Both the position numbers and the translations under genes were made by a program. From sequence record NZ_KX443406.1: a stretch of 64,000 bases of DNA; one strand, written 5' to 3'. The stretch is from a plasmid. A model generated the notes under the pieces. It was not told the origin of the DNA, did no database searches, and saw only the letters and a program-made list of their open reading frames with translations. Numbering within the stretch: the first letter of the stretch is position 1; every line of letters starts with the position of its first letter. This document shows positions 12,007 through 57,982 of the stretch, one piece after another.

Positions 12007-12280
12007 GGGTGCGTTGCACCGTTGTACGCCTGCGGCGCACCCTGAAACGAGCTCCGCTGCGCTCCGCCCCTGGAAAAGACTTCTTCCTTTTTCCCTTCTG
12101 GCTTCCGATTTTGACCGGCGGTGACCTCCGCGCAACCCCTTGGCGCTGCGCGGCCTGACGGCTCCGAAAATTCTCTCCCCCGCTGCGCTCCTCCAAGATT
12201 TTTCGACCCCAGGGGTTGCACTCCGGCCCCCTCATACCGGTCCAAATACTCCATGCCAGAAGGGCAAAAGAACGGGCGGG
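12007..12280 (+). repeat. 274-bp direct repeat, copy A (~99% identical to 53487..53761)
   Basis: Hand alignment shows 3 mismatches over 274 bp. Contains internal inverted repeats (GGTGCGTTGCACC; GCAACCCCTTGG ... CCAGGGGTTGC) and pyrimidine-rich tracts. Lies immediately upstream of the DUF4192 gene. Confidence 0.9.
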
Positions 12281-12314
12281 CCACCGAGGTCCGTCCCAGA
12301 CCGGAGGGGGCGCC

Positions 12315-13450: not shown

Positions 13451-13618
13451 CTACAGCAGGTCTTCCGCGCCGTCGGCGGGAAACGAGACGTCGACGCGAG
13501 GACCAGAGTCGTCCAGCGGCTCGCCGGCAACGACGCGACCAAGGTCGTCATCCGTCACACGAACCGTGTCCTTCGTCAACTGATACAAGGCCGCCTCCGC
13601 GGCCGACCGCTCACTCAT
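13451..13618 (-). CDS. small acidic hypothetical protein (55 aa)
   Basis: Internal ATG (M34 of the track ORF) has an excellent SD, GAGGGAGGAAGGGACGAC-ATG. It lies downstream of the HNH gene in the same orientation. Confidence 0.3.
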   Translation of the reverse strand: MSERSAAEAALYQLTKDTVRVTDDDLGRVVAGEPLDDSGPRVDVSFPADGAEDLL

Positions 13619-20470: not shown

Positions 20471-22897
20471 CTACTTGGCGGCCTTGCGCTTCGTCGTGCC
20501 GCTGGGACGCTTCGCGTCGTCGAATTTCAAGACGAACCCGACCACTTTGCGCCCGTTGAAGGTCTTCTCCGCCAGCGCACCTTTGGCCGTGTACGGTCTG
20601 CCGGTCTTGCTCTTGGCTGCGAACTCGATGGTCTCCCCAGCCAGCAGCTTCGCCAGCTCCTCCTCCGTGAAGTCCTTGCCGGGCCAGTGTTCGTTGGCAC
20701 CCCAGCCCCGACCCTTGAACGAGACCTTCTTGCCCTTCCACACACCGGTGACCAGGTCGGTTCTCTCCTCGAACTGAGGCTTGAAACCCACGTACGGGTA
20801 CTGCTTGCCGTCCTTCTCCAACACGCCGGACTCAAGCCGGCCCTTGCAGGTGTACGTGGTACCGGTCTTGGGACGCTTCGCGGTGATCTCGATGCTCTCG
20901 CCGGCCAGCAGCGCCGCCACCTCGGCGTCGGTGAACCGGTGCCCACCGAAGACCCGCTTCGCGCGGGTGACCACGGTGCCGTTGTGGGTGAACTGCAGCG
21001 CGGGCGGCAAGTCGATGGCCTCGACAGGCGCATGGGTCAGTCCGGCCTTGGCGATTCGGTCCTTGACCTCAGCAGGCAATCGGCCCGCGTTCACCTTCAT
21101 CTTCTCGATGTCGTGACGCACCAGGTCGGCCACCAACGGCAGGAAGTCGGGGGTCGCGCCGGTGCCCGCCTCGATCTGCGCCATCTGCTCGTATACCTGC
21201 TCGGTGATCGACAGGTCGCCGATGTGTGTGCCCGGGAGGATGCGGTGGTTGAGCTCGCCGAGCGGGCTGAGGGTGAGCTTGCCGCGCTTCTCGATCATGA
21301 GGGCCTTGCCGGTGGCGTTGTTGGTGACCTCGGCGTATGTGCTGGTCCGGGTGGCACCGGTGCCCACGCTCCGCTTCTCGAGCTGCTTCATCAGCCAGCT
21401 CATCGTCGGATGGGGCGGCCTCGCTGGGAAGCCTTCGTGCACGAACGGTTCCGCGAGCTTGCCGAGTGTGGTCGCCCCCGACGCCGGTTCGGGCTCGTCG
21501 GTGTCGTCGTCTTCGACGACGAACACGCCCTTCCAGCCGAGCACGGCCGGCACGTTCAGCGAACCGACGAAGGTCGGGTACTTCTCGACATGTCCCCGGT
21601 GCTGGTCGTACTCGTAGTCCGGTGCCAGCATCGTCAGATAGTTCTTCGCCAGCACCTCGTAGATTTCTCGGCCCAGCTCGCCGAATCTCTTCTCCACCGC
21701 GTCCAGGCTGGGAGGGACGTTGGGTCCCGGGCGGTTGGCACCGTGCGCGCCACCGGACTTGACGTGACTCTTGCGCGGGGTGCGGTGGCTCAACGCCGCC
21801 GATTCCACACCGACGACGGCGGCGATCGCGTCGATCAGCGGAAGCAGCTCGTTGAACTGCTCAGGCGAGATGAACTTGTCCTCGGTGCGCGGGTACGAGA
21901 CCACCTGGACCTCGTACATCTTCTGGTAGGTCTCGAGCACGTTCTTGGCGCCGAACCCCTTCTTCGACAGCAGCGAGGAGAGCGCGGCCAGGTCCATCAG
22001 CCGCGGCGGCGTGGTCTTCTTACGGGTCGTCCCGTCGTGGACCACCGCGGACGCGCTCAAGCCGTCTGGGACGTCGGCCTTGTTCTCGAACCGGTCGATA
22101 TCGGGATCGGTGTAGGTCACGCCGTTCTCGTCACGGAACCGGTTCTCGTAGAACGCCTTCTTGACGTAGCCGTTGTGGGCGTCGAGGCCGTCGCCGACGA
22201 TCACGACCATCGCCGACTTGAGGCGGCCGTTGCGCAGCACCGTGTTGGACCCGGAGACCCTGGTCGCGACGCGGGTGAACTGCATCGACAGCATGTCCCA
22301 CTTCGATCGGAAGTCGGCCTTGCGGTAGTCACCCTCGTCTTGGATAGACGACACCGGCCGCCGCGTCCTGAACGCCTTCTGCAGCGAGGCCGGGGTCTCG
22401 TCGAGGAACTCCATCCGCTCGAGCTTCTTGCCCTGCAGGCCGAGGAACTCCACGATCTCCCAGCCCAGCAGTGAGCCCTCACCGGTCGGATCGAGGTCGG
22501 CGGCGTTGCACACCGTGTCGCAGTCCGACAGCGTCGTCTTGAGCTGCGCGAGCAGGCTCTTCGCGTCCTTGTCGGTGACCAGCTTCCCGCCCGAGAGCTT
22601 GCGCCTGACTTCGCGCTCCCAGCGGAAGTCTTCGGAGCGCCACGGGAGATTCGCGAGTTCCCAGCTCTTGTACCGCTCAGCGAGCGCCTCCGGCACCATC
22701 GCCGACGGGTCCTTTAATTCGAGCAGATGGCCTCGCGCATTGACGATGACGTATTCCGTGCCGTCGAACGTGCCACTCATGCCACCGAGCGCGGCCGCGA
22801 AGTTGCGCGCCGCCGAGGGCTTCTCGGTGAGGATGCCCACTTTCCCCTTCGAGGTGGATCGACTGTCAGAGTTACGGGACACAGAAACACACTCCAT
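20471..22897 (-). CDS. type IA DNA topoisomerase (Topo III-like) with C-terminal repeat domains
   Basis: Toprim start GILTEKPSAARNFAAALGG...ARGHLLEL is Topo III-type (AEKPS). Tandem C-terminal repeats (FTDAEVAALLAGESIEITAKRPKTGTTYTCKGRL / FTEEELAKLLAGETIEFAAKSKTGRPYTAKGAL). Start set at MECVSVS (ATG revcomp at 22895-22897) after GGGAGGGG SD. Confidence 0.8.
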   Translation of the reverse strand: MECVSVSRNSDSRSTSKGKVGILTEKPSAARNFAAALGGMSGTFDGTEYVIVNARGHLLELKDPSAMVPEALAERYKSWELANLPWRSEDFRWEREVRRKLSGGKLVTDKDAKSLLAQLKTTLSDCDTVCNAADLDPTGEGSLLGWEIVEFLGLQGKKLERMEFLDETPASLQKAFRTRRPVSSIQDEGDYRKADFRSKWDMLSMQFTRVATRVSGSNTVLRNGRLKSAMVVIVGDGLDAHNGYVKKAFYENRFRDENGVTYTDPDIDRFENKADVPDGLSASAVVHDGTTRKKTTPPRLMDLAALSSLLSKKGFGAKNVLETYQKMYEVQVVSYPRTEDKFISPEQFNELLPLIDAIAAVVGVESAALSHRTPRKSHVKSGGAHGANRPGPNVPPSLDAVEKRFGELGREIYEVLAKNYLTMLAPDYEYDQHRGHVEKYPTFVGSLNVPAVLGWKGVFVVEDDDTDEPEPASGATTLGKLAEPFVHEGFPARPPHPTMSWLMKQLEKRSVGTGATRTSTYAEVTNNATGKALMIEKRGKLTLSPLGELNHRILPGTHIGDLSITEQVYEQMAQIEAGTGATPDFLPLVADLVRHDIEKMKVNAGRLPAEVKDRIAKAGLTHAPVEAIDLPPALQFTHNGTVVTRAKRVFGGHRFTDAEVAALLAGESIEITAKRPKTGTTYTCKGRLESGVLEKDGKQYPYVGFKPQFEERTDLVTGVWKGKKVSFKGRGWGANEHWPGKDFTEEELAKLLAGETIEFAAKSKTGRPYTAKGALAEKTFNGRKVVGFVLKFDDAKRPSGTTKRKAAK

Positions 22898-22956
22898 CGT
22901 GGGATAACCCCTCCCGGGGATTGGCTGGGCCTGGTGCCCTGCCATGCGATTTGAAT

Positions 22957-23400
22957 CTATACAAGATCACTCTTCGGCTCGAGTCGACCCGCGTGCGTGC
23001 TCTTCTGCTTCCGGCGCAGGGCAATGACGCCCACCGCGGCACCGAGGGCCGCCGGGGCCACGATGATCGCGGCAAGCCCGGGGTCTGGGATCACGTCGAC
23101 GAAGTTCACTCGCCGCCCGCGGATGTCGGCCATCTGTGCGGCCGCGGCGAGAAGTAGATTCCACGAAGCAGCCACACATGTGACACCGACACCTCCGATT
23201 GCCTCGACGGCCAGAGACCCCCGCGGCTGGAATGTCCCACCGCGGCGCGACGTGGTGCCGATCTTCCAGAGCAGTACGGCGAGCCCGATGAACGCGGTGC
23301 TCGGGAGGATCACGCTCAACACAATGTCGAGTATGGCCAATGACCCGCCAACGTCCGACGGGGGCGGCTCTGGGATCGGTTCGGTGAAAACGGAACTCAC
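22957..23400 (-). CDS. small integral membrane protein
   Basis: Three to four hydrophobic helices. Start overlaps the stop of the DUF4913 gene (ATGA), so it is operon-internal. Confidence 0.5.
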   Translation of the reverse strand: MSSVFTEPIPEPPPSDVGGSLAILDIVLSVILPSTAFIGLAVLLWKIGTTSRRGGTFQPRGSLAVEAIGGVGVTCVAASWNLLLAAAAQMADIRGRRVNFVDVIPDPGLAAIIVAPAALGAAVGVIALRRKQKSTHAGRLEPKSDLV

Positions 23401-47249: not shown

Positions 47250-47496
47250 GTGCGAGTCCGCAGGACTCACTGGCTGAATCGGGGGGGATTCAAACTGCCG
47301 CCCGCAGTCTACCGTCACCACCCGACAAGACCGAGGCGCGTGACCAAGATCGCCAACCCGATGCCACGCGTTCGAACGACAGTGCTGCCGCGGCACCGCT
47401 ACGCGCCGCCTTGCCATCTATCACTCCCTGGTCACCAGAGCGCGGAGGCCGCGACGGCGCAGTGCCGGCGGGTAGAGTCACCTCGATCAATCCGCT

Positions 47497-47537
47497 GGGG
47501 CAGCCAGGCCCAAGCACGAACCCGGAAGGGAACTTTC
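47497..47537. promoter_or_regulatory. diverged copy of conserved leader cassette (GGGGCAGCCAGGCCCAAGC ... CCCGGAAGGGAACTTTC-ATG)
   Basis: Aligns to the GGGCATCAGGCCCAGC + CCCGGGAAGGG cassettes at 48007, 51251 and 56616. TAGAGT -10-like hexamer at 47473. Confidence 0.4.
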
Positions 47538-47909
47538 ATGGCCGACACGGACCGCCGCTCCGGCGCAGAACTGCGCGCTCGACGGGAGCTGCTCGGCCTC
47601 AACGCGCAGGAGACCGCCGCACTACTCGGTGTCGACGAACGCGTGATCCGAAGATGGGAACAAGGCAAGCCCATCCCCGAAGGAGTCGTCGCCGAACTCG
47701 CGCAACTCGAACAGGTCCAGGACGACGTGATCCGGGAACTCGAAGACGCCGGCAAAGACAGTGGCGTCATCACCACCTACAAGGGCGACGGCGTCGTACC
47801 CGACCGCCCCGAACTGCCTGCCCGCTGGCACCGCGTCGCGGCCGCAACCGCGGTCCGCAACCTCGCAGCCGAGGGAGTCGACACCCGAATCATCTACGCC
47901 GAAAGCTGA
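47538..47909 (+). CDS. XRE-type HTH regulator (123 aa)
   Basis: ATG 47538. LRARRELLGLNAQETAALLGVDERVIRRWEQGK. The long track ORF from 46650 is an off-frame extension. Confidence 0.6.
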   Translation: MADTDRRSGAELRARRELLGLNAQETAALLGVDERVIRRWEQGKPIPEGVVAELAQLEQVQDDVIRELEDAGKDSGVITTYKGDGVVPDRPELPARWHRVAAATAVRNLAAEGVDTRIIYAES

Positions 47910-47953
47910 CTACCAGGCGATACGTGCGGATCCGGTCCGTTCTGGCATTGTGC

Positions 47954-48050
47954 CGTTACAACGATTGAACGGCTAAACGTTGTAACGTAGAATGGTTGTA
48001 GCGAGCAGGGCATCAGGCCCAGCTCACGATCCCCGGGAAGGGGACTCCTC
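47954..48050. promoter_or_regulatory. leader cassette copy 1: inverted repeat CGTTACAACG-14nt-CGTTGTAACG, TAGAAT -10, 17-nt motif AGGGCATCAGGCCCAGC (48007-48023), SD CCCGGGAAGGGG
   Basis: All elements read directly. The 17-nt motif is identical in three copies and contains the hairpin GGGC-AUCA-GCCC. Confidence 0.6.
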
Positions 48051-48242
48051 ATGCACGACTATGTCGTGGCGATCAGCCATCGCGACGGTGACCACGTCGG
48101 CTCCGTCAAAGTCTCAGCAGCGTCAGCGCCCGATGCGGCGGACGCCGGAATCTTGACCATGCTCGACGGGCGGCCGTTGCCGTCGAGCGACTACCGGGCG
48201 ATCGCCGTTCCGCTGCGCCAGCTCGCACCGGCCTCCCACTGA
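48051..48242 (+). CDS. small hypothetical protein (63 aa)
   Basis: GC3-rich ORF immediately after leader cassette copy 1. Confidence 0.5.
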   Translation: MHDYVVAISHRDGDHVGSVKVSAASAPDAADAGILTMLDGRPLPSSDYRAIAVPLRQLAPASH

Positions 48243-48319
48243 CCTTCGGATCGGCGGGGCGCCCGACGGCAAGCCCCGCCGATCCCTCTCCTTGACCAGC
48301 CCTGGAAAGGGACACGGCA

Positions 48320-49318
48320 ATGAATCTTGCAATCGAATCATCCGGCACCCCAACGGACGAGCTGTTCAACAACCTCTCGAACATCCTCAGCACCGTCGCG
48401 TGGGCCGGCATGGCTCTCGGGGTCATCATCATGGTCGTCAGCATGGGTCGGTTGGCTTTCGCCTACGACTCCTACGCCTGGTCCAGTGCCCTTCGCGGAA
48501 TCATCGGGGGAGTGGGAGCCATCGTCGGCTTCGGACTCGCCGCACTACTCGGTGCGGCCGGCTCCGCCTCCGACGCTCCCGCCGAGCCAGCAGAATCAGA
48601 ACCGTCCCCGGCTCCGCAGCCGGTTCCGATCCCGACCCCGGCCCCTGATCCGACCCCGACTGACGTCGGCGACTCCACCCCCGCTGGTTTCGACATCAAT
48701 CCCATGATCCTGCTCGCTGCCTTCGGCGCGATCGGGTTCGTCGTCGTCACCTGGTTCGCCGTGTCCAACTTGCGAGCCCGCCGCGCCGAGCGCCGCGAGG
48801 AGCGAGAAGCCCGCGAGCGCGACTGGGCGACCGGTCAGGCCGTGTACAAGGGCGTCCTCGACGACTACAGCGCCTATCTGCTCGATCCCTTCGCGTGGCT
48901 CCAACGGCCCATCCTCGAAGACGTCGACGAGCCGCTGACGGCCGCGTTCCTCGAAGCGCTCGCCCACGCCCAGGCGCTCGACCTCGACGTCGTCCCCGCC
49001 GACCAGAACCGAATCGACCAGTTCCGCACCGCGGCCCACGAACTCCGGGCAGCCTGGGACAAGGCCGACGAGAACGCCCGCCGCATCGGCACCAGCATCT
49101 ACGAGCGGTCCAGCCGCAACAAGCTCCGCAAGGCCGCCTACGCGCTCCGCACCGCACTCGACACCTCCGCCACCGCAGCAGAGCGTCAAGCCGCCACCGA
49201 GACCGTCAAGCGACTGACAGACGGCCTGGTCAAAGCGCCCGAACGCGTCCTCAGTGCCGTCACCGCGGCCATCGACACAGCACGTCGCAAGGAACTCCCT
49301 GTCGGACTCAACCAGTAG
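48320..49318 (+). CDS. membrane protein with Pro-rich linker and cytoplasmic coiled-coil domain
   Basis: Two TM segments separated by the PAEPAESEPSPAPQPVPIPTPAPDPTPTD linker; the C-terminal 200 aa are helical and charged. Confidence 0.5.
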   Translation: MNLAIESSGTPTDELFNNLSNILSTVAWAGMALGVIIMVVSMGRLAFAYDSYAWSSALRGIIGGVGAIVGFGLAALLGAAGSASDAPAEPAESEPSPAPQPVPIPTPAPDPTPTDVGDSTPAGFDINPMILLAAFGAIGFVVVTWFAVSNLRARRAERREEREARERDWATGQAVYKGVLDDYSAYLLDPFAWLQRPILEDVDEPLTAAFLEALAHAQALDLDVVPADQNRIDQFRTAAHELRAAWDKADENARRIGTSIYERSSRNKLRKAAYALRTALDTSATAAERQAATETVKRLTDGLVKAPERVLSAVTAAIDTARRKELPVGLNQ

Positions 49319-49357
49319 CTTGTAGACCGAGCCCCCACCAGACGCAGAACGGACTCC

Positions 49358-49669
49358 ATGGATCAGATGAACGCATTCACATGGATCGGCCTCGCCCTCC
49401 TCATCGTCGGCGGCGGCATCGTGATCTGGGTGTCGCCGATGGTGCTCGCCCTACAAGCCAAGGGGCTTCCCGGAGGGAAGTACCGCACCCGGCACGGCAT
49501 CGGGCTCGGGCTCGCCGCATTTGGCGCCATCCTGATGAACATCGGCACGCTGAGCTCGAGCGCCGGCGTCGCGATGAAGATCGCCGCCCTCGCGGCCGCA
49601 GTGATCCTGCTGGGAACACTGGTATGGGCCACTGTGCGGATGCGCGACCAGAGCGGAGCAGCTGAGTAA
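49358..49669 (+). CDS. small membrane protein (103 aa, 3 TM)
   Basis: Hydrophobic ORF with GC3 bias. Confidence 0.45.
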   Translation: MDQMNAFTWIGLALLIVGGGIVIWVSPMVLALQAKGLPGGKYRTRHGIGLGLAAFGAILMNIGTLSSSAGVAMKIAALAAAVILLGTLVWATVRMRDQSGAAE

Positions 49670-49734
49670 CCACCGGGACCGACAAGAAGGCGGGGCACAT
49701 GCCCCGCCTTCTTTGTGTCTATATGGCTCCCGAT

Positions 49735-50310
49735 CTACTCCGGTGCGGGCGGCGGGGGCCCGATCACGGGGGGAGGGGGAGCCTTCGGCAGCGGCGGCAG
49801 CGGTTTGCCTCCCAGATATTCCAGGGCGTTTCGAACCAGTCCGGGTTCGGCCTCTGCGACGACGCGGCGGCGCTCCTTGATTCGCCGCCAGGTGCGTATG
49901 CGTCCGATCCTTGGGTGCCAGACCACGCTTTGAAGGTCCCACGCGGCCTCGCGCGATAACCGGGTTAGCTCCGGACCAATTTTGCCTGCGTCGTAGTCGA
50001 GAGGTTGATCTTCCGCATCTTGCAGGCTCTTCCACCACGCTACATATGCGAGCAGTTTGTAGTGCTCGACAACGTTTCTCGGGGTTGCGGCAACGATCGC
50101 CGCCTTCTCCAACTCAGCGATCGCCTGCTGAAAGGGCGGGGCGTCCGGGAGGTCGCTGGGGCCGGCCCACCGAGCGGCCTCGCAGTCGGCCAATCGACGC
50201 AGGACCTCGCTGCGCACCTGCCGTCGCCCTTGGGCGCCGATCAAATACTGACCGACGAATGACCCGATACCGAGCGCGCCAAGGATGGATGCGAAAGCGG
50301 AGAGGTCCAC
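49735..50310 (-). CDS. hypothetical protein with N-terminal TM and Pro-rich C-terminus
   Basis: ORF on minus strand with GC3 bias; ends PLPPLPKAPPPPVIGPPPPAPE. Confidence 0.4.
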   Translation of the reverse strand: MDLSAFASILGALGIGSFVGQYLIGAQGRRQVRSEVLRRLADCEAARWAGPSDLPDAPPFQQAIAELEKAAIVAATPRNVVEHYKLLAYVAWWKSLQDAEDQPLDYDAGKIGPELTRLSREAAWDLQSVVWHPRIGRIRTWRRIKERRRVVAEAEPGLVRNALEYLGGKPLPPLPKAPPPPVIGPPPPAPE

Positions 50311-50408
50311 CAGCGCAGACTAGCCCGCGCCGCGGCACAACTAGTGTCCTCGAGATGACGACAGGTCGAGATGAAGGATCACGCTCGAAGTGGACGCGCG
50401 GTACTCGA

Positions 50409-51005
50409 ATGTGGGGGGCCGCGACTGTCTTCGCGGTACTCGTCCTTTGGGGAGGCACGCAGCTGGCCATTGCACGGGGGCAAGATGTGGCCTGGTACAC
50501 GGGATTCGGCCAGTGGCTCGGTGCGCTGGGTAGCCTGATCGCAGCCGCCGTAGCGTTGGGAATCGCCACCACGGACCGGCGCCAGGCCGCGAAGCTGCGG
50601 ACGGCTGAGCAAGACGACCGCGACGCAGACCTAGCCCGCGAAGCAGGGCTGGTACGGATTCAAATCGAACACGTGCAGGATGGTGTTCCGCCGATGCCCG
50701 TGAAGGCCATCACCGTGAGGAACTGGAGGCAGTCCCGACTGTTCGAAGTGGAACTGGTGAGGATCGCGGTGACCAGCGCGCAAACGAAGGCTGAGATCGG
50801 AAGTGTCCGGATGCACTTCCCCAACGGTCGGAGCTGGGGGGTAAACAAGCATGACGTGAAGCTGACACCGATCGACCACGGGATGACTTTGTGGGTCTTC
50901 CCAATGAACGGTGCTGTGCCGAAATACGGGGCGCTCCAATACACCGATGAAGCCGGGCGGCGGTGGGAGGTCGACACCAAGGGGATCATCGCGCGGAAGC
51001 TGTAG
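50409..51005 (+). CDS. hypothetical membrane-anchored protein
   Basis: ATG 50409 (MWGAATVFAVLVLWGG...); two N-terminal TM helices then a beta-rich domain. Confidence 0.4.
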   Translation: MWGAATVFAVLVLWGGTQLAIARGQDVAWYTGFGQWLGALGSLIAAAVALGIATTDRRQAAKLRTAEQDDRDADLAREAGLVRIQIEHVQDGVPPMPVKAITVRNWRQSRLFEVELVRIAVTSAQTKAEIGSVRMHFPNGRSWGVNKHDVKLTPIDHGMTLWVFPMNGAVPKYGALQYTDEAGRRWEVDTKGIIARKL

Positions 51006-51194
51006 GGACTGAGGTTCCTGCCCCGCCGGGTCGTCATTATCGCGGCGGCTCGTCGCTGCGTACCCCTGGCCCGCTCCGCTCTACCAGGGGCAATGCCTAC
51101 CTGCGGCAGGTACTGCACTCCTCGTCCACCGCACCATTCGTCTCTTGCCGGCGGGGCCGGGGAACGGTTGAAACAACACCGAAAAACAGGCCGC

Positions 51195-51291
51195 CATCAG
51201 GCATTACGTATTGCAAACAGCTATATTGTTGGATAGAATGAGAGGGCGGTAGGGCATCAGGCCCAGCCGCCGACACCCGGGAGGGAAACTC
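51195..51291. promoter_or_regulatory. leader cassette copy 2: TAGAAT -10 (51234-51239), motif AGGGCATCAGGCCCAGC (51251-51267), SD CCCGGGAGGGAAA
   Basis: Read directly; same spacing as copy 1. Confidence 0.6.
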
Positions 51292-51585
51292 ATGGACACC
51301 GATCTGATCGAGCAGACCGTCATCGTCACCGCAACCATCGCCCAGGAGGCGGACGGCCACACCAACACGGTCGACCTCGAGGCGCACCTGGACGGCGCAG
51401 GCTGCGTCCTCCCGCCCGTCTGGGCGCAGAGTCTCGTTGCCGCGCAGGCCGACCCGGGGGAGTGGAGCACTGACATCGCCGACCGGGTCCTCGCGGGCCA
51501 CGGATACCGCCGCACCGACGAGTGGCTCGATGACGACAGCGGATGCTGGACCGCGACCGTCGAGCACATCGCCAGCGCATCCTGA
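51292..51585 (+). CDS. small acidic hypothetical protein (97 aa)
   Basis: GC3-rich ORF directly downstream of leader cassette copy 2. Confidence 0.5.
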   Translation: MDTDLIEQTVIVTATIAQEADGHTNTVDLEAHLDGAGCVLPPVWAQSLVAAQADPGEWSTDIADRVLAGHGYRRTDEWLDDDSGCWTATVEHIASAS

Positions 51586-51658
51586 CACCATCGGATACCG
51601 GCAGCAGTTGGGCCGGGCCACTGGGTTCCGGCCCAACGCATACGAGGGGGAGAGCCAC

Positions 51659-52228
51659 ATGCAGGACGTCGAGCACGACGAGACGAACGCGTTCGTCGAC
51701 GAGCCGACCGACGACCCGGGCAGCGAGTACACCGAGCCCGAACTCGACCCCAAGGCTCACATGCTCTGCGCCGCCGTGTGGACCCGAGACGACACCACCT
51801 TGAGGTTCGTCGTCGAGCGGATGACCGAGGCCGACTTCGCGAACCCCTTCCACCGCCCTGTTTTCGCGGCGATCCGGGATGCGGTGCTGGCCGGCCACCC
51901 GCACGACCCGGCTAGCGTCAGCATGGCGCTCGGTCGCGCAGGCAGCCAGGCCGTACCGGCCGCCGTCCACAACCACTTCCGCGCGGCGCTCACCCTGGGG
52001 TCGTCCGCGGGCGCGCTGCGCTACTACGCCGCTGACGTCGTCGCTGTTGCGTACCGACGGAGCTTCCATGAGCTGGCGGCCACGATGGCGCACGCGGCAG
52101 CCGGGGCCGCGGAAGATCAACTGTTCCCGATCCTGGTCGACCTGGGCACCCGGCAGCGCAGCGAGATGAATCGACTCCGGTCCCTCCGCGACGACCCACT
52201 GCCCACGACGGCGACCGACCAGGCGTGA
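51659..52228 (+). CDS. DnaB-helicase N-terminal-domain protein (stand-alone)
   Basis: ATG 51659 after GAGGGGGAG SD. AHMLCAAVWTRDDTTLRFVVERMTEADFANPFHRPVFAAIRDAV ... RYYAADVVAVAYRRSFHELAA matches the DnaB N-terminal domain pattern; no ATPase domain follows. Confidence 0.5.
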   Translation: MQDVEHDETNAFVDEPTDDPGSEYTEPELDPKAHMLCAAVWTRDDTTLRFVVERMTEADFANPFHRPVFAAIRDAVLAGHPHDPASVSMALGRAGSQAVPAAVHNHFRAALTLGSSAGALRYYAADVVAVAYRRSFHELAATMAHAAAGAAEDQLFPILVDLGTRQRSEMNRLRSLRDDPLPTTATDQA

Positions 52229-52274
52229 CGCGGGGTCCAGGCTGCAATATTCCCGTTCGCAATAGGATGGGCGC

Positions 52275-52859
52275 ATGATGATCGGATACGCGCGGGCCGA
52301 GGAAGGCCACGACGAGGACCAGCAACGCTCGTCGCTCGTCGCGCTGGGAGTCCAGCCCGATCACATCCATATCGACCGCGGTCTACGCGGGACCAGGAAC
52401 GACCTGCCCGCCCGCACGGCCATGCTCGCACGCCTCACCGCCGGCGACGTCATCGCGGTCACCGGACTCGAGCGACTGGCCCGCTCCGCTGCCGAGCTGG
52501 GCGAAGTCGCTGGCGTGATCGAGCAGCGCGGCGCATCACTTCGCGTCGGATCGACCGTTTACGACCCGGACACCGAGACCGGCCGCACCGCGTTCGCCAT
52601 GCTCACCCAGACCTTCCCCGACTTCCAAGCCGGAATCTTCCAACTTCGGCTGTCCGGGCCGCGCGCGAAAGCCAAAGCTGCAGGACGGTATCCGGGCGGC
52701 AAGGCGAAGCTCACACCAGAGCAGAGCCGTGCAATGTTCGAGCAGTACCAGTCCGGCGAGAAGACAGTCGCCGACCTGCAGAAGGAACACGGGCTGAGCA
52801 AGTCCGGTGTGTACGTGTACCTGCGGCAGGAACGCGACGCCCGCAACAACACTGCCTAG
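52275..52859 (+). CDS. serine-recombinase (resolvase/invertase) homologue lacking the catalytic serine; C-terminal HTH
   Basis: MMIGYARAEEGHDEDQQ replaces IGYARVSTxxQ. Otherwise clear resolvase similarity (DVIAVTGLERLARS ; GIFQLRLSGPRAKAKAAGRYPGGKAKL) and an HTH (TVADLQKEHGLSKSGVYVYLR). Confidence 0.6.
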   Translation: MMIGYARAEEGHDEDQQRSSLVALGVQPDHIHIDRGLRGTRNDLPARTAMLARLTAGDVIAVTGLERLARSAAELGEVAGVIEQRGASLRVGSTVYDPDTETGRTAFAMLTQTFPDFQAGIFQLRLSGPRAKAKAAGRYPGGKAKLTPEQSRAMFEQYQSGEKTVADLQKEHGLSKSGVYVYLRQERDARNNTA

Positions 52860-53042
52860 ACCACGCAATCGGAATTGCCCTCGCTCCTGCCGATACCTGT
52901 TCGGGCCGCACCTCGACTGAGCCGGAGATTGCCGCTGGGTATCAAAGGAGACGAACGTGCCCTACCCCCAGTGGGTGGTGGCGGACGATGGACTCGCCCC
53001 CGACGCAAACCCAGGCAGAGCACGCCCACTGAGGAGGCTGCG

Positions 53043-53126
53043 ATGTTCGATCTTCCGTTCTGGGGGCCGCTCACGCCCGTGGTGATCGCAGTGGCCAACG
53101 CGCTCGACTGGCTGGGGGTGTGGTGA
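53043..53126 (+). CDS. tiny Trp-rich hydrophobic peptide (27 aa), first of four tandem
   Basis: MFDLPFWGPLTPVVIAVANALDWLGVW. Stop overlaps the next ATG (TGATG). Confidence 0.3.
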   Translation: MFDLPFWGPLTPVVIAVANALDWLGVW

Positions 53127-53212
53127 TGGCACCGCTCGGCGGCGTCCTCGTCCCGGAGTGGCTGTACGACGTGCTCTACCAACTCTGGCTATGGGGCATT
53201 CCGCCGCACTAG
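53126..53212 (+). CDS. tiny Trp-rich peptide (28 aa)
   Basis: MAPLGGVLVPEWLYDVLYQLWLWGIPPH; translationally coupled to the preceding peptide; AGGAGAG SD follows for the next. Confidence 0.3.
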   Translation: MAPLGGVLVPEWLYDVLYQLWLWGIPPH

Positions 53213-53226
53213 CAGGAGAGAAGCTC

Positions 53227-53331
53227 ATGGGTGACACGTTCTGGTTTCTGCCGTTGCCATTCGAGACGCTCCGATGGCTGGCTGCGACGTACCCATGCCT
53301 GGTCGACTTCCGCCAGGCGTGTGGGCGATAA
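53227..53331 (+). CDS. tiny Trp/Phe-rich peptide (34 aa)
   Basis: MGDTFWFLPLPFETLRWLAATYPCLVDFRQACGR after AGGAGAGAAGCTC-ATG. Confidence 0.3.
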   Translation: MGDTFWFLPLPFETLRWLAATYPCLVDFRQACGR

Positions 53332-53341
53332 GGAGACGGTC

Positions 53342-53449
53342 ATGCTCGACTACGGATTCTTCGGCCGCACCCTCGGCCCTCTCGGCGAGGCGATGGACAT
53401 TGTCATCTACTGGATCGCCACAGGCGTGCGGCTGATGCCGCACGCATAG
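53342..53449 (+). CDS. tiny hydrophobic peptide (35 aa)
   Basis: MLDYGFFGRTLGPLGEAMDIVIYWIATGVRLMPHA after AAGGAGACGGTC-ATG. Confidence 0.3.
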   Translation: MLDYGFFGRTLGPLGEAMDIVIYWIATGVRLMPHA

Positions 53450-53486
53450 CGCGCGAATCACCGAGGCCCTTCTCGACAATTTCCCC

Positions 53487-53761
53487 GGGGTGCGTTGCAC
53501 CGTTGTGCGCCTGTGGCGCACCCCGAAACGAGCTCCGCTGCGCTCCGCCCCTGGAAAAGACTTCTTCCTTTTTCCCTTCTGGCTTCCGATTTTGACCGGC
53601 GGTGACCTCCGCGCAACCCCTTGGCGCTGCGCGGCCTGACGGCTCCGAAAATTCTCTCCCCCGCTGCGCTCCTCCAAGATTTTTCGACCCCAGGGGTTGC
53701 ACTCCGGCCCCCTCATACCGGTCCAAATACTCCATGCCAGAAGGGCAAAAGAACGGGCGGG
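53487..53761 (+). repeat. 274-bp direct repeat, copy B
   Basis: See copy A (12007..12280); 3 mismatches. Confidence 0.9.
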
Positions 53762-53959
53762 GGAGAGACCCGTCCCCGAGTGAGGAGGGCGTCATGCGTC
53801 GCGTTGAGGCGGAAGTCGATTCGAAGGACGAGATCGCCGAGATCGTCGAGTTGCTCGACGGAAACCCCTGGAACTAGATCAGCGCCCGAGAAATGAGTGA
53901 GTCGGGACAGAAGGTAGCTGCCCCGACTCGCTCTCCCGAACTGTAGGAGAGAGGCCATC

Positions 53960-55510
53960 ATGACCGCAACGACCACCCCCGAACTGCTCACCGTCGATCC
54001 CGCCACCCTCGAGATCGGTGACAACGTCCGCGACGAGGTCGACCTCGACGCGACACCCGAGTTCGTCGAGTCCATCGCAGAACACGGTGTGCTGCACCCG
54101 ATCCTGGCAGAGCGCCGGAATGACGGCACCATCTTGGTCACCGATGGCCAGCGCCGACTTCTCGCCGCCCGCGTCGCGAACCGGACCAGCGTGCCCGTCA
54201 TCATCCGGCCCCAGGGGAATGGAACCGACAACGCTCGCAAGGCCGCTCGCATCGGCCAGCAGATCGTCTCCAATGACCAGCGCGAAGCCCTCACCGATGG
54301 CCAGCGCGCCGCCGGCATCGCCGCCATGCTCGACCTGGTCCTGTCCCAGACCGCCGTCGCCAAGGCAGCCAGCGTCTCCCGCGACAGGGTCAAGACCCTC
54401 GCGACGGTCGGCGCATCGAAGGCCGCTCGCGCCAGCGTGGACGAGCATCAGTTCACCATCGAACAGGCCGCGACCATCGCCGAGTTCGAGGAAGCCGGCG
54501 ACACCGAGGGCATCAACCGCCTGCTCTCCTCTGGCAGCCACTACCAGTTCGACTACATGGCCGAGCGTCTGCGTTGTGACCGGGCGGAACGCATCGCACA
54601 CGCCGAGGCAGCCGCGCCGTACGAGGCCAAGGGCTTCACCATCCTCGACGGCTACAACTACCACCCGGTCACGTTCGAGCACGTCCTCACCGAGACCGGC
54701 GAACCGATCACCCTCGAGACGGTCGAAGCTGACGCCTCCCGCTGGGGCGTCCGGCTGAGCTGGACCGAGGCGTGGTTCGACCGCCAGAGCGGGGCAGAGG
54801 TCGCCGAGGACGAAATCGACTGGGACACCCACGAGAACCCCGACCTCGAAGCCGAGGACGGCCTGATCCACATGAACAACATCGAGACCCGCCGCGTGTG
54901 GGACCGCGAGTTCCACCTGCTCGACCCCGGCAACCTCGAGGGCAGCGGCCTCCAGCTGAGCGATGTCGCCAAGGTCATGGTCGCGCGCAGGACCGGACGC
55001 GCTGCCGCAGTGCCGGCGACCGCCGAAGAAGCAGCCGCCCAGATCGAGGCGGAGCGCGAGGAACGCCGCCGCGTCCGAGAGCTGAATAAGCGCGCCGAGG
55101 CGGCGAACACCGTCCGACGCACCTTCCTGCGTACCCTGCTCGGACGCACCAAGCTCCCCGCGAACGCCTCCGTGTGGATCGCGGTCACCCTCGCGAGCGA
55201 TCCTCACCTGCTGGCCGAGTACCACGCGAGCGACTGCTTCGGAGAGCTACTCGGGATCAAGGACTACCGACTCTCGAACAACGCCGTCCGGGACCTGGCC
55301 GTCGCAGCCAGCGACGCCCGCGCCCAGGTCATCACCTTCGCCCTGGTGATCGCCGCGATGGAGGCCCGCATGGTCAAGGACGCCTGGCGGACCCGGCCCC
55401 GAGGCGCAACCGCCTACCTCGAACTCCTCGCCGCGAACGGCTACGAACTGTCGGACGTCGAGAAGGCGATCGCCGCGCACATCAAGCCCGAGACCATCAG
55501 CCTCGACTAG
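53960..55510 (+). CDS. ParB/Srx-domain protein (516 aa)
   Basis: N-terminal ParB nuclease-like domain with GxRRxxAA box (ILVTDGQRRLLAARVANR). Long C-terminal helical region. ATG 53960 after GGAGAGAGG SD. Confidence 0.65.
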   Translation: MTATTTPELLTVDPATLEIGDNVRDEVDLDATPEFVESIAEHGVLHPILAERRNDGTILVTDGQRRLLAARVANRTSVPVIIRPQGNGTDNARKAARIGQQIVSNDQREALTDGQRAAGIAAMLDLVLSQTAVAKAASVSRDRVKTLATVGASKAARASVDEHQFTIEQAATIAEFEEAGDTEGINRLLSSGSHYQFDYMAERLRCDRAERIAHAEAAAPYEAKGFTILDGYNYHPVTFEHVLTETGEPITLETVEADASRWGVRLSWTEAWFDRQSGAEVAEDEIDWDTHENPDLEAEDGLIHMNNIETRRVWDREFHLLDPGNLEGSGLQLSDVAKVMVARRTGRAAAVPATAEEAAAQIEAEREERRRVRELNKRAEAANTVRRTFLRTLLGRTKLPANASVWIAVTLASDPHLLAEYHASDCFGELLGIKDYRLSNNAVRDLAVAASDARAQVITFALVIAAMEARMVKDAWRTRPRGATAYLELLAANGYELSDVEKAIAAHIKPETISLD

Positions 55511-55593
55511 ACCCGCACGCGAAGGAGGCCCGCACCGCACGGTGCGGGCCTTCGCCCCGTCTGCTGCACACTTGAACGAACGAGGAGGGGACA

Positions 55594-55832
55594 TGACCGG
55601 CGAGCAGCACTTCGATCAGGATCCAGGCCCAGACGCCTGGGCCGACGACACGCTCGGCGCAGCCGAAGCGATGAGTGACGACGAGCTCGACGCAGCAATC
55701 GACGCCCTGGCCGCTCGCGAGCGACGGTGCCTCATCAGGGGGAACGTCGAGTACGCCAAGTCCCTCGCGCACGACAAGTGGGTCTGCATCACCGTTCGGA
55801 CGAACAGAAACCGGCCGTGGCCTGGTAGTTGA
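55594..55832 (+). CDS. small acidic hypothetical protein (79 aa)
   Basis: ATG after GAGGAGGGGAC SD. Confidence 0.4.
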
Positions 55833-55884
55833 CGTTCCGAACCGGCCTTCGCGCCAGCGCGGACCGCCCCACCGGAATCCCTAT

Positions 55885-55918
55885 TTTGTAGTACACAAAT
55901 AGCCAATTTTGTAGTACA
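55885..55918. promoter_or_regulatory. direct repeats TTTTGTAGTACA x2 (10-bp spacer) in AT-rich promoter of brnTA
   Basis: Read directly; a likely RHH-antitoxin operator, 9 bp upstream of ATG 55927. Confidence 0.5.
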
Positions 55919-55926
55919 GTATTAGC

Positions 55927-56193
55927 ATGGCAATCAAGTGGACCGGCAGCGCCGACAAGCATGGAATCGACCATGCCGACGCGACCCATGCAATCGCGCA
56001 CGCGATGTACGTCGAGGAGGAGTTCGATGATCCTCGACCGCCGTCGACGATTCGGCCCACCCTGTTCATTGGTCCGCCGCGAAAGCTGGGCGGCCCCTTG
56101 CTCGAAGTGATGGTGGAGATCGGCCCTCGCGACATCACGGTCTTTCACGTGATGGAGGCCCGCCAGAAGCATCTCGACCGGATGGAGGACTGA
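55927..56193 (+). CDS. brnT: BrnT-like toxin (DUF497)
   Basis: IKWTGSADKHGIDHADATHAI ... RPTLFIGPPRKLGGPLLEVMVEIGPRDITVFHVMEARQ follows the DUF497 pattern (W..KH GV..E...R..iG....g.ll.Vv...r...i.ii.AR). Confidence 0.55.
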   Translation: MAIKWTGSADKHGIDHADATHAIAHAMYVEEEFDDPRPPSTIRPTLFIGPPRKLGGPLLEVMVEIGPRDITVFHVMEARQKHLDRMED

Positions 56194-56558
56194 TGACGAC
56201 CATGAAGACGGGGGTGGCGGCACAGATGGAGGAAGCCATGACCAGCAAGAAGAAGAGCTACGACGAGGCAGCCGACTGGGCCGAACACGAGATGACCCTG
56301 CCGGAGAACTCGAAGACGGCCCGCAGGGGAGCCGCCGCCGCCGAGGCGGGGCGAGCGCTCCTCGCGCGCGCCCATGCCGGGCGGCCGAGTCTGGATCCGC
56401 AGGCCAAGCCGGGGGAGGAATCTCCCCGGCGACAGGTGCGACTGCCCCTCGCGGTGAGCGAGCAGGTGGACGCGCTGGCGGCCGCCCAGGGTCGGCGCGC
56501 CGCCGAGGTCATGCGCGACGCGATCACGATGTACGTCAACGAGCACGCAAGCCGCTGA
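56193..56558 (+). CDS. brnA: BrnA-like antitoxin (C-terminal RHH)
   Basis: Start overlaps brnT stop (TGATG). C-terminus RQVRLPLAVSEQVDALAAAQGRRAAEVMRDAITMYV is a CopG/RHH fold, as in BrnA. Confidence 0.55.
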   Translation: MTTMKTGVAAQMEEAMTSKKKSYDEAADWAEHEMTLPENSKTARRGAAAAEAGRALLARAHAGRPSLDPQAKPGEESPRRQVRLPLAVSEQVDALAAAQGRRAAEVMRDAITMYVNEHASR

Positions 56559-56607
56559 CGTGCCGTCCCGTCGGCGCGACGCCAGCGCCGGCGGGTAACG
56601 GAGCTTG

Positions 56608-56657
56608 AACAGGGCAGGGCATCAGGCCCAGCCCATCCGCCCAGGGAAGGGAACCTC
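56608..56657. promoter_or_regulatory. leader cassette copy 3: motif AGGGCATCAGGCCCAGC (56616-56632) + SD CCAGGGAAGGGAACCTC-ATG
   Basis: Read directly. The downstream ORF (56658..) is coding-like for ~30 codons and then runs antisense through the SRAP pseudogene. Confidence 0.5.
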
Positions 56658-57330
56658 ATGGAACCGATGAGCACCGCACTGCTGCCGGACTCTGCACGCG
56701 TGCCGGCGCCCGAATCGATCCGTGCCGCGCTGCAACGGCCGACTATGGCGGACGGTGTTGACCGCGGTGCTCACTTCGTAGGGCTGCAGATGCGGTTCGG
56801 GGATGGAGTTCACCATCGCCTGCACTTCGTCGCGGTCGGTGATCGAGGGGTCGAGCCAGTGCTCCCAGAACGACGCGGGCAGGATGACAGGGGAGCGGTC
56901 ATGGATGTGTCCGGTCGCGTCCGTCGCCTGTGTGGTGAGCACGGTGGTGGTCCACAGCCAGCCGACCCGGGTCGTCCTCGGTCTTGGACGGGTCCGGCCA
57001 CAGCTCGTAGAGGCCGGCCATCGCGAGGACCGGGTCGTCGCCGTGGAGGAGGTACGGATTTCCTCCGTACCTTTTATCCATGGACCTGATTCCTGAGGCG
57101 TAGTCACTCCCGTCGCGCCCACCGCACAATCATCGGGATCCCCAATAACCCCGCGCCGATCTCGGCGACCGCGAGATTCGCAGCCGGTGAGGTGGAGGTT
57201 GCCGGTGTATGGGGTGGTATCCCACGCCGACGTGCGGCCCCGCCGCTGAAGGTCTTCCACGGGCCGCTCATCTACTCCGCGTATGCCCGCGTCTGGTGAC
57301 GATCCAACAAAACCAGAGCCGATCGCAATA
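56622..57330 (-). pseudogene. SOS-response-associated peptidase (SRAP/YedK, DUF159) remnant, frameshifted
   Basis: Minus-strand fragments in two or more frames, in order: MIVRWARRE (N-terminal-like), then MDKRYGGNPYLLHGDDPVLAMAGLYELWPDP (matches the central SRAP motif), then HIHDRSPVILPASFWEHWLDP ... YEVSTAVNTVRHSRP (matches the SRAP C-terminus). No intact N-terminal Cys2-containing ORF. Confidence 0.55.
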
Positions 57331-57622: not shown

Positions 57623-57982
57623 ATGGCAAGAAAAGTAGTCACACTCACAGAGTTCTTCGACGACTTCGATGGTGAGAAGATCGACGACGGCCTGTCCGAG
57701 ACCATCGAGTTCACCGTTCAAGGGACTAGTTATAGGATGGACCTCCGTCCGAAGAACGCCGAGAGGTTCCGCAAAGACCTTGAAAAGTGGATTGCAGCCG
57801 CAGTAAAGGTGGGCGGGCGTGCCAGTCGTTCTAAGCGGTCGGGGGTCGTGCCCGGGGGCTCTAGGAGATCCAAGGAAGGGCTAGCGGCGATTCGGAACTG
57901 GGCCGCCCGCAACGGCTACCAAGTCTCCACCCGGGGGCGCATCGCCCGGGAAGTAGTTGAAGCCTACGACGCGGCACACTAG
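57623..57982 (+). CDS. lsr2: Lsr2 nucleoid-associated protein (H-NS-like xenogeneic silencer)
   Basis: MARKVVTLTEFFDDFDGEKIDDGLSETIEFTVQGTSYRMDLRPKNAERFRKDLEKWIAAA ... IRNWAARNGYQVSTRGRIAREVVEAYDAA aligns essentially end-to-end with mycobacterial Lsr2, including the RGR DNA-binding motif. ATG 57623 after GGGAGGTG SD. Confidence 0.85.
   Translation: MARKVVTLTEFFDDFDGEKIDDGLSETIEFTVQGTSYRMDLRPKNAERFRKDLEKWIAAAVKVGGRASRSKRSGVVPGGSRRSKEGLAAIRNWAARNGYQVSTRGRIAREVVEAYDAAH

Follow-up and report, generated by a model that had tools for sequence, protein, structure and literature searches.

The described system closest to the element discussed here, a messenger RNA leader that recurs along 64,000 nucleotides (nt) of plasmid DNA from sequence record NZ_KX443406.1 (the whole of this stretch is hereafter the window), is that of the helix-turn-helix (HTH) protein Aca2. 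As outlined by Feussner et al. (NAR 2026, PMC13551039) on the work of Birkholz et al. (Nature 2024), Aca2 binds two hairpins in the 5' untranslated region (5'-UTR), the second of which lies over the ribosome-binding site, and represses translation; it also represses transcription at an inverted repeat in the promoter. In the same outline, the RNA motif begins directly after the transcription start site (TSS), the position of the start codon is conserved, 'proteo-' and 'actino-' classes of the motif are distinguished, and up to three adjacent operons bear it, of which one alone holds aca2; an example of an Aca2 system is the acrIF8-aca2 operon of Pectobacterium phage ZF40. Aca2 proteins are also established DNA binders (PMC9410906; PDB 7vjq). 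About 3% of Aca2-like genes adjoin a known acr gene (PMC9410906), and an acr neighbour is therefore not strictly defining for a system of the Aca2 type.

The window belongs to a virulence plasmid of Prescottella (Rhodococcus) equi: its region 40000-62000 is 100% identical to pVAPB1593 (NC_011150.1), and pVAPA-type plasmids match the same region at 93-94% identity. Five transcription units on the backbone of this plasmid have in common a 5' leader, called the cassette below, composed of a hairpin and of a Shine-Dalgarno (SD) sequence that can fold as a second one. The element is most likely a modular 5' leader of the mRNA, neither a DNA site nor a duplicated segment. Judging by analogy with Aca2, we consider it rather probable that its two hairpins form the RNA operator of the plasmid's own Aca2/YdiL-family HTH protein, common to the five units.

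The cassette fits the Feussner 2026 description of the Aca2 RNA motif point by point. A mobile element encodes an HTH protein of ~120 amino acids (aa), here with the Aca2/YdiL fold by prediction; the 5'-UTR has two conserved hairpins, the first of them covarying and the second lying over the ribosome-binding site, which would come right after the TSS; the position of the start codon is fixed; several operons with the motif lie nearby, one of them with the regulator; and behind the motif stand small genes of obscure function. Certain traits set the two apart. The ZF40 example comes from a phage, whereas the host here is a conjugative virulence plasmid, whose five units are distributed over 34 kb and both strands, with ten or more on related mycobacterial plasmids. 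An inverted repeat in the promoter is typical of Aca2 systems, but no such shared operator was found here, and the mycobacterial relatives fuse two HTH domains in one protein. Systems in which 5'-UTR hairpins go with an HTH protein of the Aca2 family are a kind already known, an actinobacterial class and a reach over several operons among them, and the cassette, compared by description, may be the published 'actino-motif'.

Two other kinds of regulatory site share some of these traits. In IncP plasmids, the repressors KorA and KorB each have sites at several backbone operons and coordinate expression after transfer. The likeness lies in a multi-operon backbone regulon under one plasmid-encoded repressor; Kor operators, however, are conserved DNA palindromes in promoters that act on transcription, whereas the cassette is transcribed, structured and strand-specific. 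Hairpins that stabilise messages at their 5' end, such as that of E. coli ompA, resemble the cassette in lying a few nt from the (here putative) 5' end and in that pairing outweighs stem sequence. Stabilisers of this sort need no conserved mismatch or loop, no fixed SD spacing and no second hairpin over the SD. Unlike them, the cassette is common to several units and has a linked regulator gene.

Five copies of one leader

The 17-mer AGGGCATCAGGCCCAGC, on which the original prediction was built, occurs exactly at 48007, 51251 and 56616 on the + strand; at up to three mismatches the chance expectation for the window is 0.27, and four matches were reached in none of 100 shuffles. The diverged copy that had been noticed near 47497 also stood up, as a hairpin at 47494-47515, and the predicted four copies became five with one on the minus strand (22944-22895), where the 17-mer lies with one mismatch at 22924-22940 before an open reading frame (ORF) for a topoisomerase. 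A covariance model built from 13 copies (R1; R2 is a broader model) gave 39-58 bits to these five sites and 10.7 bits to the next best place in the window. The five cassettes lie on both strands, each co-oriented with its own gene, and have a common layout: hairpin, short spacer, a CC(C/A)GG(G/A)A(A/G)GG box containing the SD sequence, 4-12 nt and ATG. This box (CCMGGRARGG) occurs exactly five times in 64 kb, in the cassettes only, against 1.68 occurrences expected by chance. The predicted fixed SD context was thus confirmed, and a generic ribosome-binding site of the plasmid is ruled out, the box being confined to the five cassettes.

Cassette A (47473-47540, + strand), recognised by sequence, fold and geometry (R1 39.4 bits, E 2e-7), comprises a -10-like TAGAGT (47473-47478), hairpin 1 GCUGGGGCAGCCAGGCCCAAGC (47494-47515; 3 bp, a G.A mismatch, 4 bp and a 6-nt loop), the SD box CCCGGAAGGGAAC (47521-47533) and the ATG at 47538 that opens the HTH gene. 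Cassette B with its promoter (47954-48053, + strand; 55 bits with R1, 53 bits with R2) has its -10 hexamer TAGAAT at 47988-47993, hairpin 1 GAGC-A-GGGC-AUCAG-GCCC-A-GCUC at 48003-48025, the SD-bearing hairpin 2 UCCCC-GGGAA-GGGGA at 48030-48044 and, at 48051, the ATG of a 63-aa gene (48051-48242). Cassette C with its promoter (51211-51294, + strand; R1 53.7 bits; fold -26.3 kcal/mol, z -3.4) consists of TTGCAA (51211-51216), a 17-nt spacer, TAGAAT (51234-51239), hairpin 1 GGCGGU-A-GGGC-AUCAG-GCCC-A-GCCGCC (51245-51271), the SD box CCCGGGAGGG (51276-51285) and the ATG (51292) of a 97-aa gene (51292-51585), which is followed, according to the annotation, by a gene with a DnaB-like N-terminal domain and then by a resolvase gene. 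Cassette D (56612-56660, + strand), the best scoring with R1 (58.4 bits), has hairpin 1 GGGC-A-GGGC-AUCAG-GCCC-A-GCCC at 56612-56634, the SD box CCAGGGAAGGGAAC at 56641-56654 and ATG at 56658; the stretch upstream of it shows no clear -10 hexamer, and a terminator-like hairpin (56567-56595) lies on its 5' side. Finally, cassette E (22895-22959, minus strand; R1 48.1 bits, fold and ORF frame) runs from TAGATT (22959-22954) through hairpin 1 UGGC-A-GGGC-ACCAG-GCCC-A-GCCA (22944-22922) and the SD box CCCCGGGAGGGG (22919-22908) to ATG 22897-22895, the most upstream in-frame ATG of an 808-codon DNA topoisomerase ORF, which translates cleanly from there and ends near 20471.

Outside the cassettes the five places have little in common. 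Over 100 nt on each side, the flanks are 0.56-0.59 identical, compared to 0.58 for random 100-mers of the window and 0.76 for the cassettes themselves; segmental duplication, which had been named as the outcome that would speak against an isolated element under selection, is therefore rejected, and the claim of an isolated, selected element at gene starts is upheld. The promoters and their inverted repeats differ among the five units, on which ground we also reject a shared promoter operator. With random flanks and different promoters, the leader is the sole shared part. A single-stranded DNA promoter acting on the transferred strand is unlikely, given that one copy is on the opposite strand and that all of them follow gene orientation. 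As had been claimed, the proteins behind the copies are unrelated to each other (all-against-all BLASTP of the five gave no hit with E<1); of the four genes then counted, however, the ORF behind the 56616 copy turned out to be a remnant that keeps ~27 codons of its homologue.

The original prediction compared the element with the start-associated sequences (SAS) and extended SAS (ESAS) of cluster K mycobacteriophages. The SAS is a 13-bp 5'-GGGATAGGAGCCC just upstream of start codons, with 11-19 copies per phage, and ESAS are imperfect inverted repeats with arms of 17 bp and a spacer of 4-13 bp, whose authors (Pope et al. 2011, PMC3203893) saw scant support for a hairpin in the mRNA. The likeness of layout is considerable, with a repeated asymmetric box over the SD of unrelated genes, often an inverted repeat with a variable spacer before it, copies all co-oriented with their genes, a function thought to be translational, and mobile elements of Mycobacteriales as carriers. 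We know of no regulator associated with SAS. The sequences themselves differ (GGGATAGGAGCCC versus CCMGGRARGG): the SAS consensus is absent from the window, its single match at two mismatches (16241-16253; 1.84 expected) lying off the cassettes. SAS and ESAS reside in phage genomes, whereas a scan of IMG/VR phage contigs did not reveal the full cassette and a comparison of the window with a phage collection gave no near match. Besides, ESAS have 17-bp arms without compensatory changes, while the arms here are 8-11 nt long (7-10 bp plus a mismatch), enclose a 5-nt loop and show clear compensatory changes. Membership in SAS/ESAS is refuted by the missing consensus, and we give it next to no credence; the analogy holds for the architecture.

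Hairpin structure, covariation and position

The 17-mer forms the central part of a hairpin 22-27 nt long, in which a purine-purine mismatch separates an outer stem from a 4-bp inner stem that closes a 5-nt loop. The RNA hairpin of the original prediction (GGGC-AUCA-GCCC) was therefore right in kind and too small, lacking the covarying outer stem and the SD hairpin. RNAfold gave the same hairpin 1 in every window copy, with outer stems GAGC/GCUC, GGCGGU/GCCGCC, GGGC/GCCC, UGGC/GCCA and GCU/AGC, a 1x1 A.A mismatch (G.A in cassette A), the inner stem GGGC/GCCC and the loop AUCAG, ACCAG or AGCCAG. After a spacer of 3-6 nt in the window copies comes the SD box, which can fold as a small second hairpin (e.g. 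UCCCC-GGGAA-GGGGA), its loop and 3' arm being the SD. Among the 26 copies whose SD core is recognisable, 25 have it within hairpin 2, in the loop or the 3' arm.

Pairs of hairpin 1 were counted in two alignments drawn from 9-10 replicons, one fitted by the model (29 sequences) and one built by position (28 canonical 23-nt hairpins). Paired cells made up 94.5% and 96.4%, respectively. Two-sided changes were seen in 31 cells, spread over 7 of the 8 pairs, in the former and in 25 cells, spread over 5 pairs, in the latter. For four of the five measures, at most one of 500 shuffles came up to the observed value; for the remaining one, how many pairs had changed on both sides, 37 of 500 did so in the position-built alignment. 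Sliding the 3' partners by 1-3 columns as a control made the paired fraction collapse to 15-60%. The third pair of the inner stem occurs as G-C, C-G, A-U and U-A.

These counts also bear on another reading, in which the element works as double-stranded DNA. In such a case, CAGGGC-N5-GCCCAG, centred ~15-20 bp after the TSS, would be the operator of a dimeric repressor, the HTH protein or another, that blocks promoter escape, and this might coexist with RNA binding. An inverted repeat with half-sites about one helical turn apart, just past the -10 hexamer, would suit such a repressor, and so would the DNA binding of Aca2 proteins (PMC9410906; PDB 7vjq). However, there are 14 G.U or U.G cells against at most one A.C cell, a bias that is not symmetric in DNA; the mismatch has a purine on both coding-strand arms in every copy, which would leave the half-sites constantly asymmetric in DNA; and within one plasmid, thus facing one set of proteins, the stems vary in sequence and still pair (the outer stem in pVAPB, the inner one in pMYCSM03). 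Taken together, the wobble bias, the purine mismatch on both arms and the varying but paired stems favour a sense-strand RNA hairpin over a palindromic DNA operator. The position of the element is, moreover, linked to the start codon and SD besides the promoter. We regard a DNA operator as quite unlikely.

As for the position relative to the promoter, the predicted TAGAAT hexamers at 11-13 nt before two of the copies are there (13 nt before the 17-mer in cassette B, 11 nt in cassette C), and -10-like hexamers (TAGAAT, TAGATT, TAGAGT) precede four of the five window copies. In 18 of 25 copies from several plasmids, 8-12 nt separate a TANNNT hexamer from the base of the hairpin. With the TSS placed from promoter consensus, hairpin 1 would start at about the second to fifth transcribed base.

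Such a position agrees with what we see as the main rival, an expression or stability leader without a dedicated regulator: a 5' hairpin protecting against RNase E/J, joined to a strong, insulated SD and spread by recombination, with the link to the HTH gene reflecting ancestry. The spacing leaves an unpaired 5' tail of a few nt in most copies, and a short unpaired tail, of about 0-4 nt, is the geometry of 5' stabilisers that prolong the half-life of an mRNA, e.g. the E. coli ompA leader. The stem sequence is also freely variable, and the SD is long and strong, as GGGAAGGGG should be able to pair with the 3' end of 16S rRNA if G.U is counted. This reading does not account for the purine-purine mismatch and the loop pattern, both conserved, for a spacing to hairpin 2 that is fixed, or for an SD that is partly buried; nor do the leaders of the regulator genes, 15-24 nt from their -10 hexamers, have the geometry in question. 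Two observations on other replicons, presented below, also speak against it, and overall we find it unlikely.

A promoter-proximal element acting on RNA polymerase, either a pause or attenuator hairpin or an antitermination signal comparable to nut or put, should be considered here as well, as the element stands at the transcript start and some of the transcripts are long operons. Phage nut and put elements are hairpins of early transcripts. The cassette hairpin, however, has no U-tract after it; translation is what hairpin 2, with the SD in it, and an SD and start codon at a short, fixed distance point to; and a promoter-less copy may exist between genes (see below). Furthermore, Rfam 15 gave no match over the whole window at gathering score, and nothing relevant at E up to 10 in the part scanned in this way (47400-48100, copies A and B), so that a known RNA family is rejected. 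An action on RNA polymerase appears very improbable to us. Among the functions that the original prediction had proposed, that of an RNA hairpin in a fixed SD context as the target of a translational regulator is the best supported.

The HTH gene and the cassette on other plasmids

Directly behind cassette A stands a gene whose family the original prediction did not notice (47538-47909, + strand). Its 123-aa product, of a length within the ~115-135 aa expected of the Aca2 type and named 'DUF1870 family protein' in RefSeq, is our candidate for the trans-acting partner of the cassette; the gene appears solitary behind cassette A. The AlphaFold2 model of the protein (pLDDT 88.9) has as its best full-length PDB matches in Foldseek Aca2 (7vjp, 7ezy, 7b5j), SO3848 (2ox6) and YdiL (1s4k), with query-normalised TM-scores of 0.60-0.78. 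By this predicted fold, it is a member of the Aca2/YdiL-fold DUF1870 family, which is known for the binding of 5'-UTR hairpins. Pfam detected no domain in the 63-aa, 97-aa and remnant proteins behind cassettes B, C and D, and no known acr gene was noticed, an anti-CRISPR library not having been searched.

Searches beyond the window, as proposed with the original prediction, led to relatives on plasmids of Rhodococcus, Mycobacterium and Streptomyces. Near-exact cassettes in PLSDB were confined to pVAPA- and pVAPB-type plasmids and the plasmid of Rhodococcus sp. SGAir0479. All five sites are kept in SGAir0479 and pVAPA1037 (with copy D decayed in the latter), and cassette B is 100% conserved among pVAPA, pVAPB and the SGAir0479 plasmid; 50 kb of cargo from this last plasmid, taken as comparison DNA, gave nothing at E up to 1. 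Diverged cassettes were found at seven further places, namely P. equi WH99 plasmid p1, a contig of R. marinonascens, a metagenomic plasmid contig (L119), an Actinomycetales metagenome-assembled contig (L175), a plasmid of M. vanbaalenii, pMYCSM03 of Mycobacterium sp. JS623, which has at least 10 cassettes in 40 kb, and a plasmid of M. chimaera. Model matches in other plasmids all end at or near a start codon, and most of these start codons are annotated. Mycobacterial cassettes have an A.G or AA/GG internal loop, inner stems GGUC/GACC, GGCC/GGUC or GGCC/GGCC and an almost unaltered SD box (UUCCCGGAAGGGGA); R1 is weak on the most diverged of these plasmids, where the architecture is discernible by eye.

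Beyond plasmids the cassette is scarce. A strict pattern of hairpin plus SD matched 115 times in 185,579 species genomes, nearly always in coding sequence, and only L175, an HTH-linked contig, looks real; we therefore reject a wide chromosomal distribution, and the lack of any other chromosomal context does not agree with a stabiliser of general use. The bare 17-mer had 112 single matches in IMG/VR (L004-L115), none of them with an SD box. Phage origin is rejected, these matches being chance or unrelated coding sequence.

Genes for HTH homologues stand directly behind the cassette on L116, L118 and L119, and on L175, which was found via the DNA pattern, the cassette likewise precedes one. Searches in the opposite direction, from the protein to the DNA, gave a similar picture. 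A Streptomyces plasmid (L244), fetched by protein homology, has the cassette at the first gene of a DUF1870 operon (28.6 bits, E 7e-6). Five further DUF1870-like loci (L245-L249) were fetched from metagenomes and genomes by HTH homology: L245 has a cassette of 29.5 bits and L249 has three operons at 24-29 bits, and L246-L248 show the same layout with weak scores. In L244, a perfect DNA palindrome abuts the -10 hexamer, and L246 also has a palindrome at -10. The motif both precedes the regulator operon and recurs elsewhere in the window, L116, L118, L119, L175, L239, L244, L245 and L249. That the cassette adjoins DUF1870 genes in contexts as unrelated as a Streptomyces plasmid and metagenomic contigs is the other observation that argues against a leader without a dedicated regulator.

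In mycobacterial plasmids, the counterpart is a protein of 281-287 aa with two tandem full-length DUF1870-like domains, whose gene is also located behind a cassette (11771-12616 in L239, 17539-18402 in L240; twelve plasmids in all). Judged from its sequence, the tandem protein is a covalent pseudo-dimer of a normally dimeric regulator. The gene is present in all five mycobacterial plasmids found through the cassette; seven further plasmids were found solely via the protein, and each of the three that we fetched had the cassette architecture.

On the pattern of Aca2, the predicted DUF1870 protein would bind the two-hairpin leader and occlude the ribosome-binding site, and binding would jointly lower the translation of five units: the HTH gene, the 63-aa operon, the operon of the 97-aa, DnaB-like and resolvase genes, the remnant where backbone and pathogenicity island (PAI) meet, and the topoisomerase. 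By analogy with Aca2 of phage ZF40, a burst of expression upon entry into a repressor-free cell might then be followed by shutdown.

Several points weigh against an RNA operator of this HTH protein, and we gather them here. The match of the protein to Pfam family PF08965 (Aca2_YdiL), at 24.3 bits, barely passes the cut-off of 23.8 and spans the HTH half only, and its sequence similarity to the Aca2 chains of PDB is weak (E about 0.03); therefore, the family assignment rests mainly on the predicted fold. The regulator's own leader, cassette A, is the most diverged copy and lies 15 nt from its -10 hexamer, in line with the 15-24 nt of the HTH genes' own leaders. We found no common DNA inverted repeat overlapping the five promoters, and none at the promoter of the HTH gene itself. 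Hairpin 2 is short and only moderately better than shuffled sequence (mean z -1.16), the covariation counts test hairpin 1, and both alignments rest on a chosen structure or chosen positions. Finally, the co-occurrence of the cassette with the HTH gene may partly mirror common plasmid ancestry.

It is tempting to go further and suppose that RNA-binding HTH proteins of the Aca2 type do more than repress the anti-CRISPR operons of phages: on large conjugative and virulence plasmids of Mycobacteriales, they would be master regulators that govern, after transcription, an entry or establishment regulon extending over the whole plasmid. We offer this generalisation tentatively. If true, the regulon would take in five units in the case of the R. 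equi plasmid and at least ten in that of the mycobacterial ones, among them the topoisomerase, DUF4192, giant methyltransferase/helicase and PAPS-reductase-like genes and many small ones of obscure function, and tandem fusion would have turned the mycobacterial regulator into a pseudo-dimer. The binding of RNA by HTH proteins would then reach from phage anti-CRISPR loci to plasmid-wide regulons. By analogy with Aca2 operons, the small proteins behind cassettes would be candidates for new anti-defence or establishment factors. An incomplete literature search returned no account of the five-unit R. equi set, the mycobacterial expansion or the tandem-fused regulator; the words 'Rhodococcus' and 'Mycobacteri' are absent from the main text of Feussner 2026 (PMC13551039), and the literature found on pMYCSM03, pRAW and DUF4192 had nothing on leaders. 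For the vap PAI to spread, the plasmid backbone (pVAPA/pVAPB) of R. equi is essential, and the regulation of this backbone is little studied. What the cassette adds is a concrete candidate circuit made up of a single small HTH gene and the five leaders that it would act on, with one leader right at the boundary of the PAI. It might also serve as a marker of co-regulated genes, start codons and small-gene sets on plasmids of Rhodococcus, Mycobacterium (M. abscessus, M. chimaera) and Streptomyces.

Island junction, marginal sites and further observations

The G+C content of the window falls from ~0.65 to 0.58 beyond 58 kb, where the vap PAI starts. The ORF behind cassette D (56658-57089) shares ~27 codons with an intact 116-aa homologue in SGAir0479 and then diverges completely; from this comparison of sequences, the point of divergence near 56740 is the left junction between plasmid backbone and PAI, with lsr2 (57623-57982) located beyond it. 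In pVAPA1037, the gene behind copy D is destroyed, and the cassette lacks part of the 3' arm and the start codon. The pVAPA1037 copy is a natural control, in which the gene was lost and the cassette decayed too.

Cassette E bears on the annotation of its gene. In RefSeq, the topoisomerase start of pVAPB and pVAPA is placed ~60-80 nt downstream of ATG 22897, and inside the topoisomerase region there is a second SD-like GAAGGGGAAA followed by GTG (22850-22838, minus strand). The annotated start is probably wrong, with the cassette pointing to ATG 22897.

Two marginal sites resemble the cassette. One, possibly a degenerate sixth copy, lies before a DUF4192 gene (12274-12317, + strand; R2 17.9 bits, E 0.025; R1 7.5 bits) and is composed of a perfect 9-bp hairpin, GGGCGGGCC-ACCGA-GGUCCGUCC, then CCGGAGGGGG and ATG. 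It has no purine-purine mismatch, and its fold is no better than that of shuffled sequence; the DUF4192 genes of mycobacterial plasmids have a strong cassette. The other, possibly a promoter-less copy within an operon, stands before the DnaB-like gene (51610-51661, + strand; R2 15.4 bits, E 0.088, a marginal score), with a hairpin UUGGGCCGGGCC-ACUG-GGUUCCGGCCCAA, then GAGGGGGAG and ATG 51659 (fold -29.3 kcal/mol, z -2.5).

The promoters themselves contain further signals. Upstream of cassette B, an inverted repeat (47954-47987, + strand) with the arms CGTTACAACGATT and AAACGTTGTAACG, 13 nt each and 92% complementary, reads CGTTACAACG(ATT)/(AAA)CGTTGTAACG; it spans the -35 region and abuts TAGAAT of the promoter of the 63-aa gene, and looks like a DNA operator private to this promoter. 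In the mycobacterial L239, L240, L117 and L241-L243, nearly every cassette promoter has a conserved TGTCGGTGG box, listed at ~16 nt before the -10 hexamer and located 6-8 nt upstream of a GGTAGnnT -10 element, i.e. in the spacer and not at -35. In the window, a comparable TGCCGGCGG stands at 47464-47472, ahead of the -10 hexamer of the HTH gene.

The genes behind mycobacterial cassettes (L239, L240-L243) encode DUF4192, a methyltransferase-domain protein (a 4.7-kb gene), AAA/VWA ATPases and DUF3560, with PAPS-reductase-family and RAMP-superfamily genes nearby; such a set resembles anti-defence or leading-region islands. Two groups of matches to the search patterns are of another nature. Seven Actinoplanes matches (L122, L145, L149, L179, L201, L204, L233) were accidental and belong to a different ~90-nt repeat, several per genome, based on a long inverted repeat CCCTTCCGGGC...GCCCGGAAGGG. 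Many of the IMG/VR matches to the 17-mer come from samples 3300028925, 3300028548 and 3300028550, on contigs of ~4-6 kb, which suggests a conserved coding segment of some small viruses, unrelated to the cassette.

Compared to NC_011150.1, the coordinates are offset by 68 at the start of the window and by 89 at 40 kb, and the first 40 kb therefore contain ~21 nt of indels. Lastly, at ~13400 and 49690 of the window (13471-13501 and 49773-49802 of the record), convergent genes have between them the long, perfect hairpins gttgtgttCGGGCATCGAGCCCGaacacaac and aagaaggcGGGGCACATGCCCCgccttctt, which look like bidirectional terminators.

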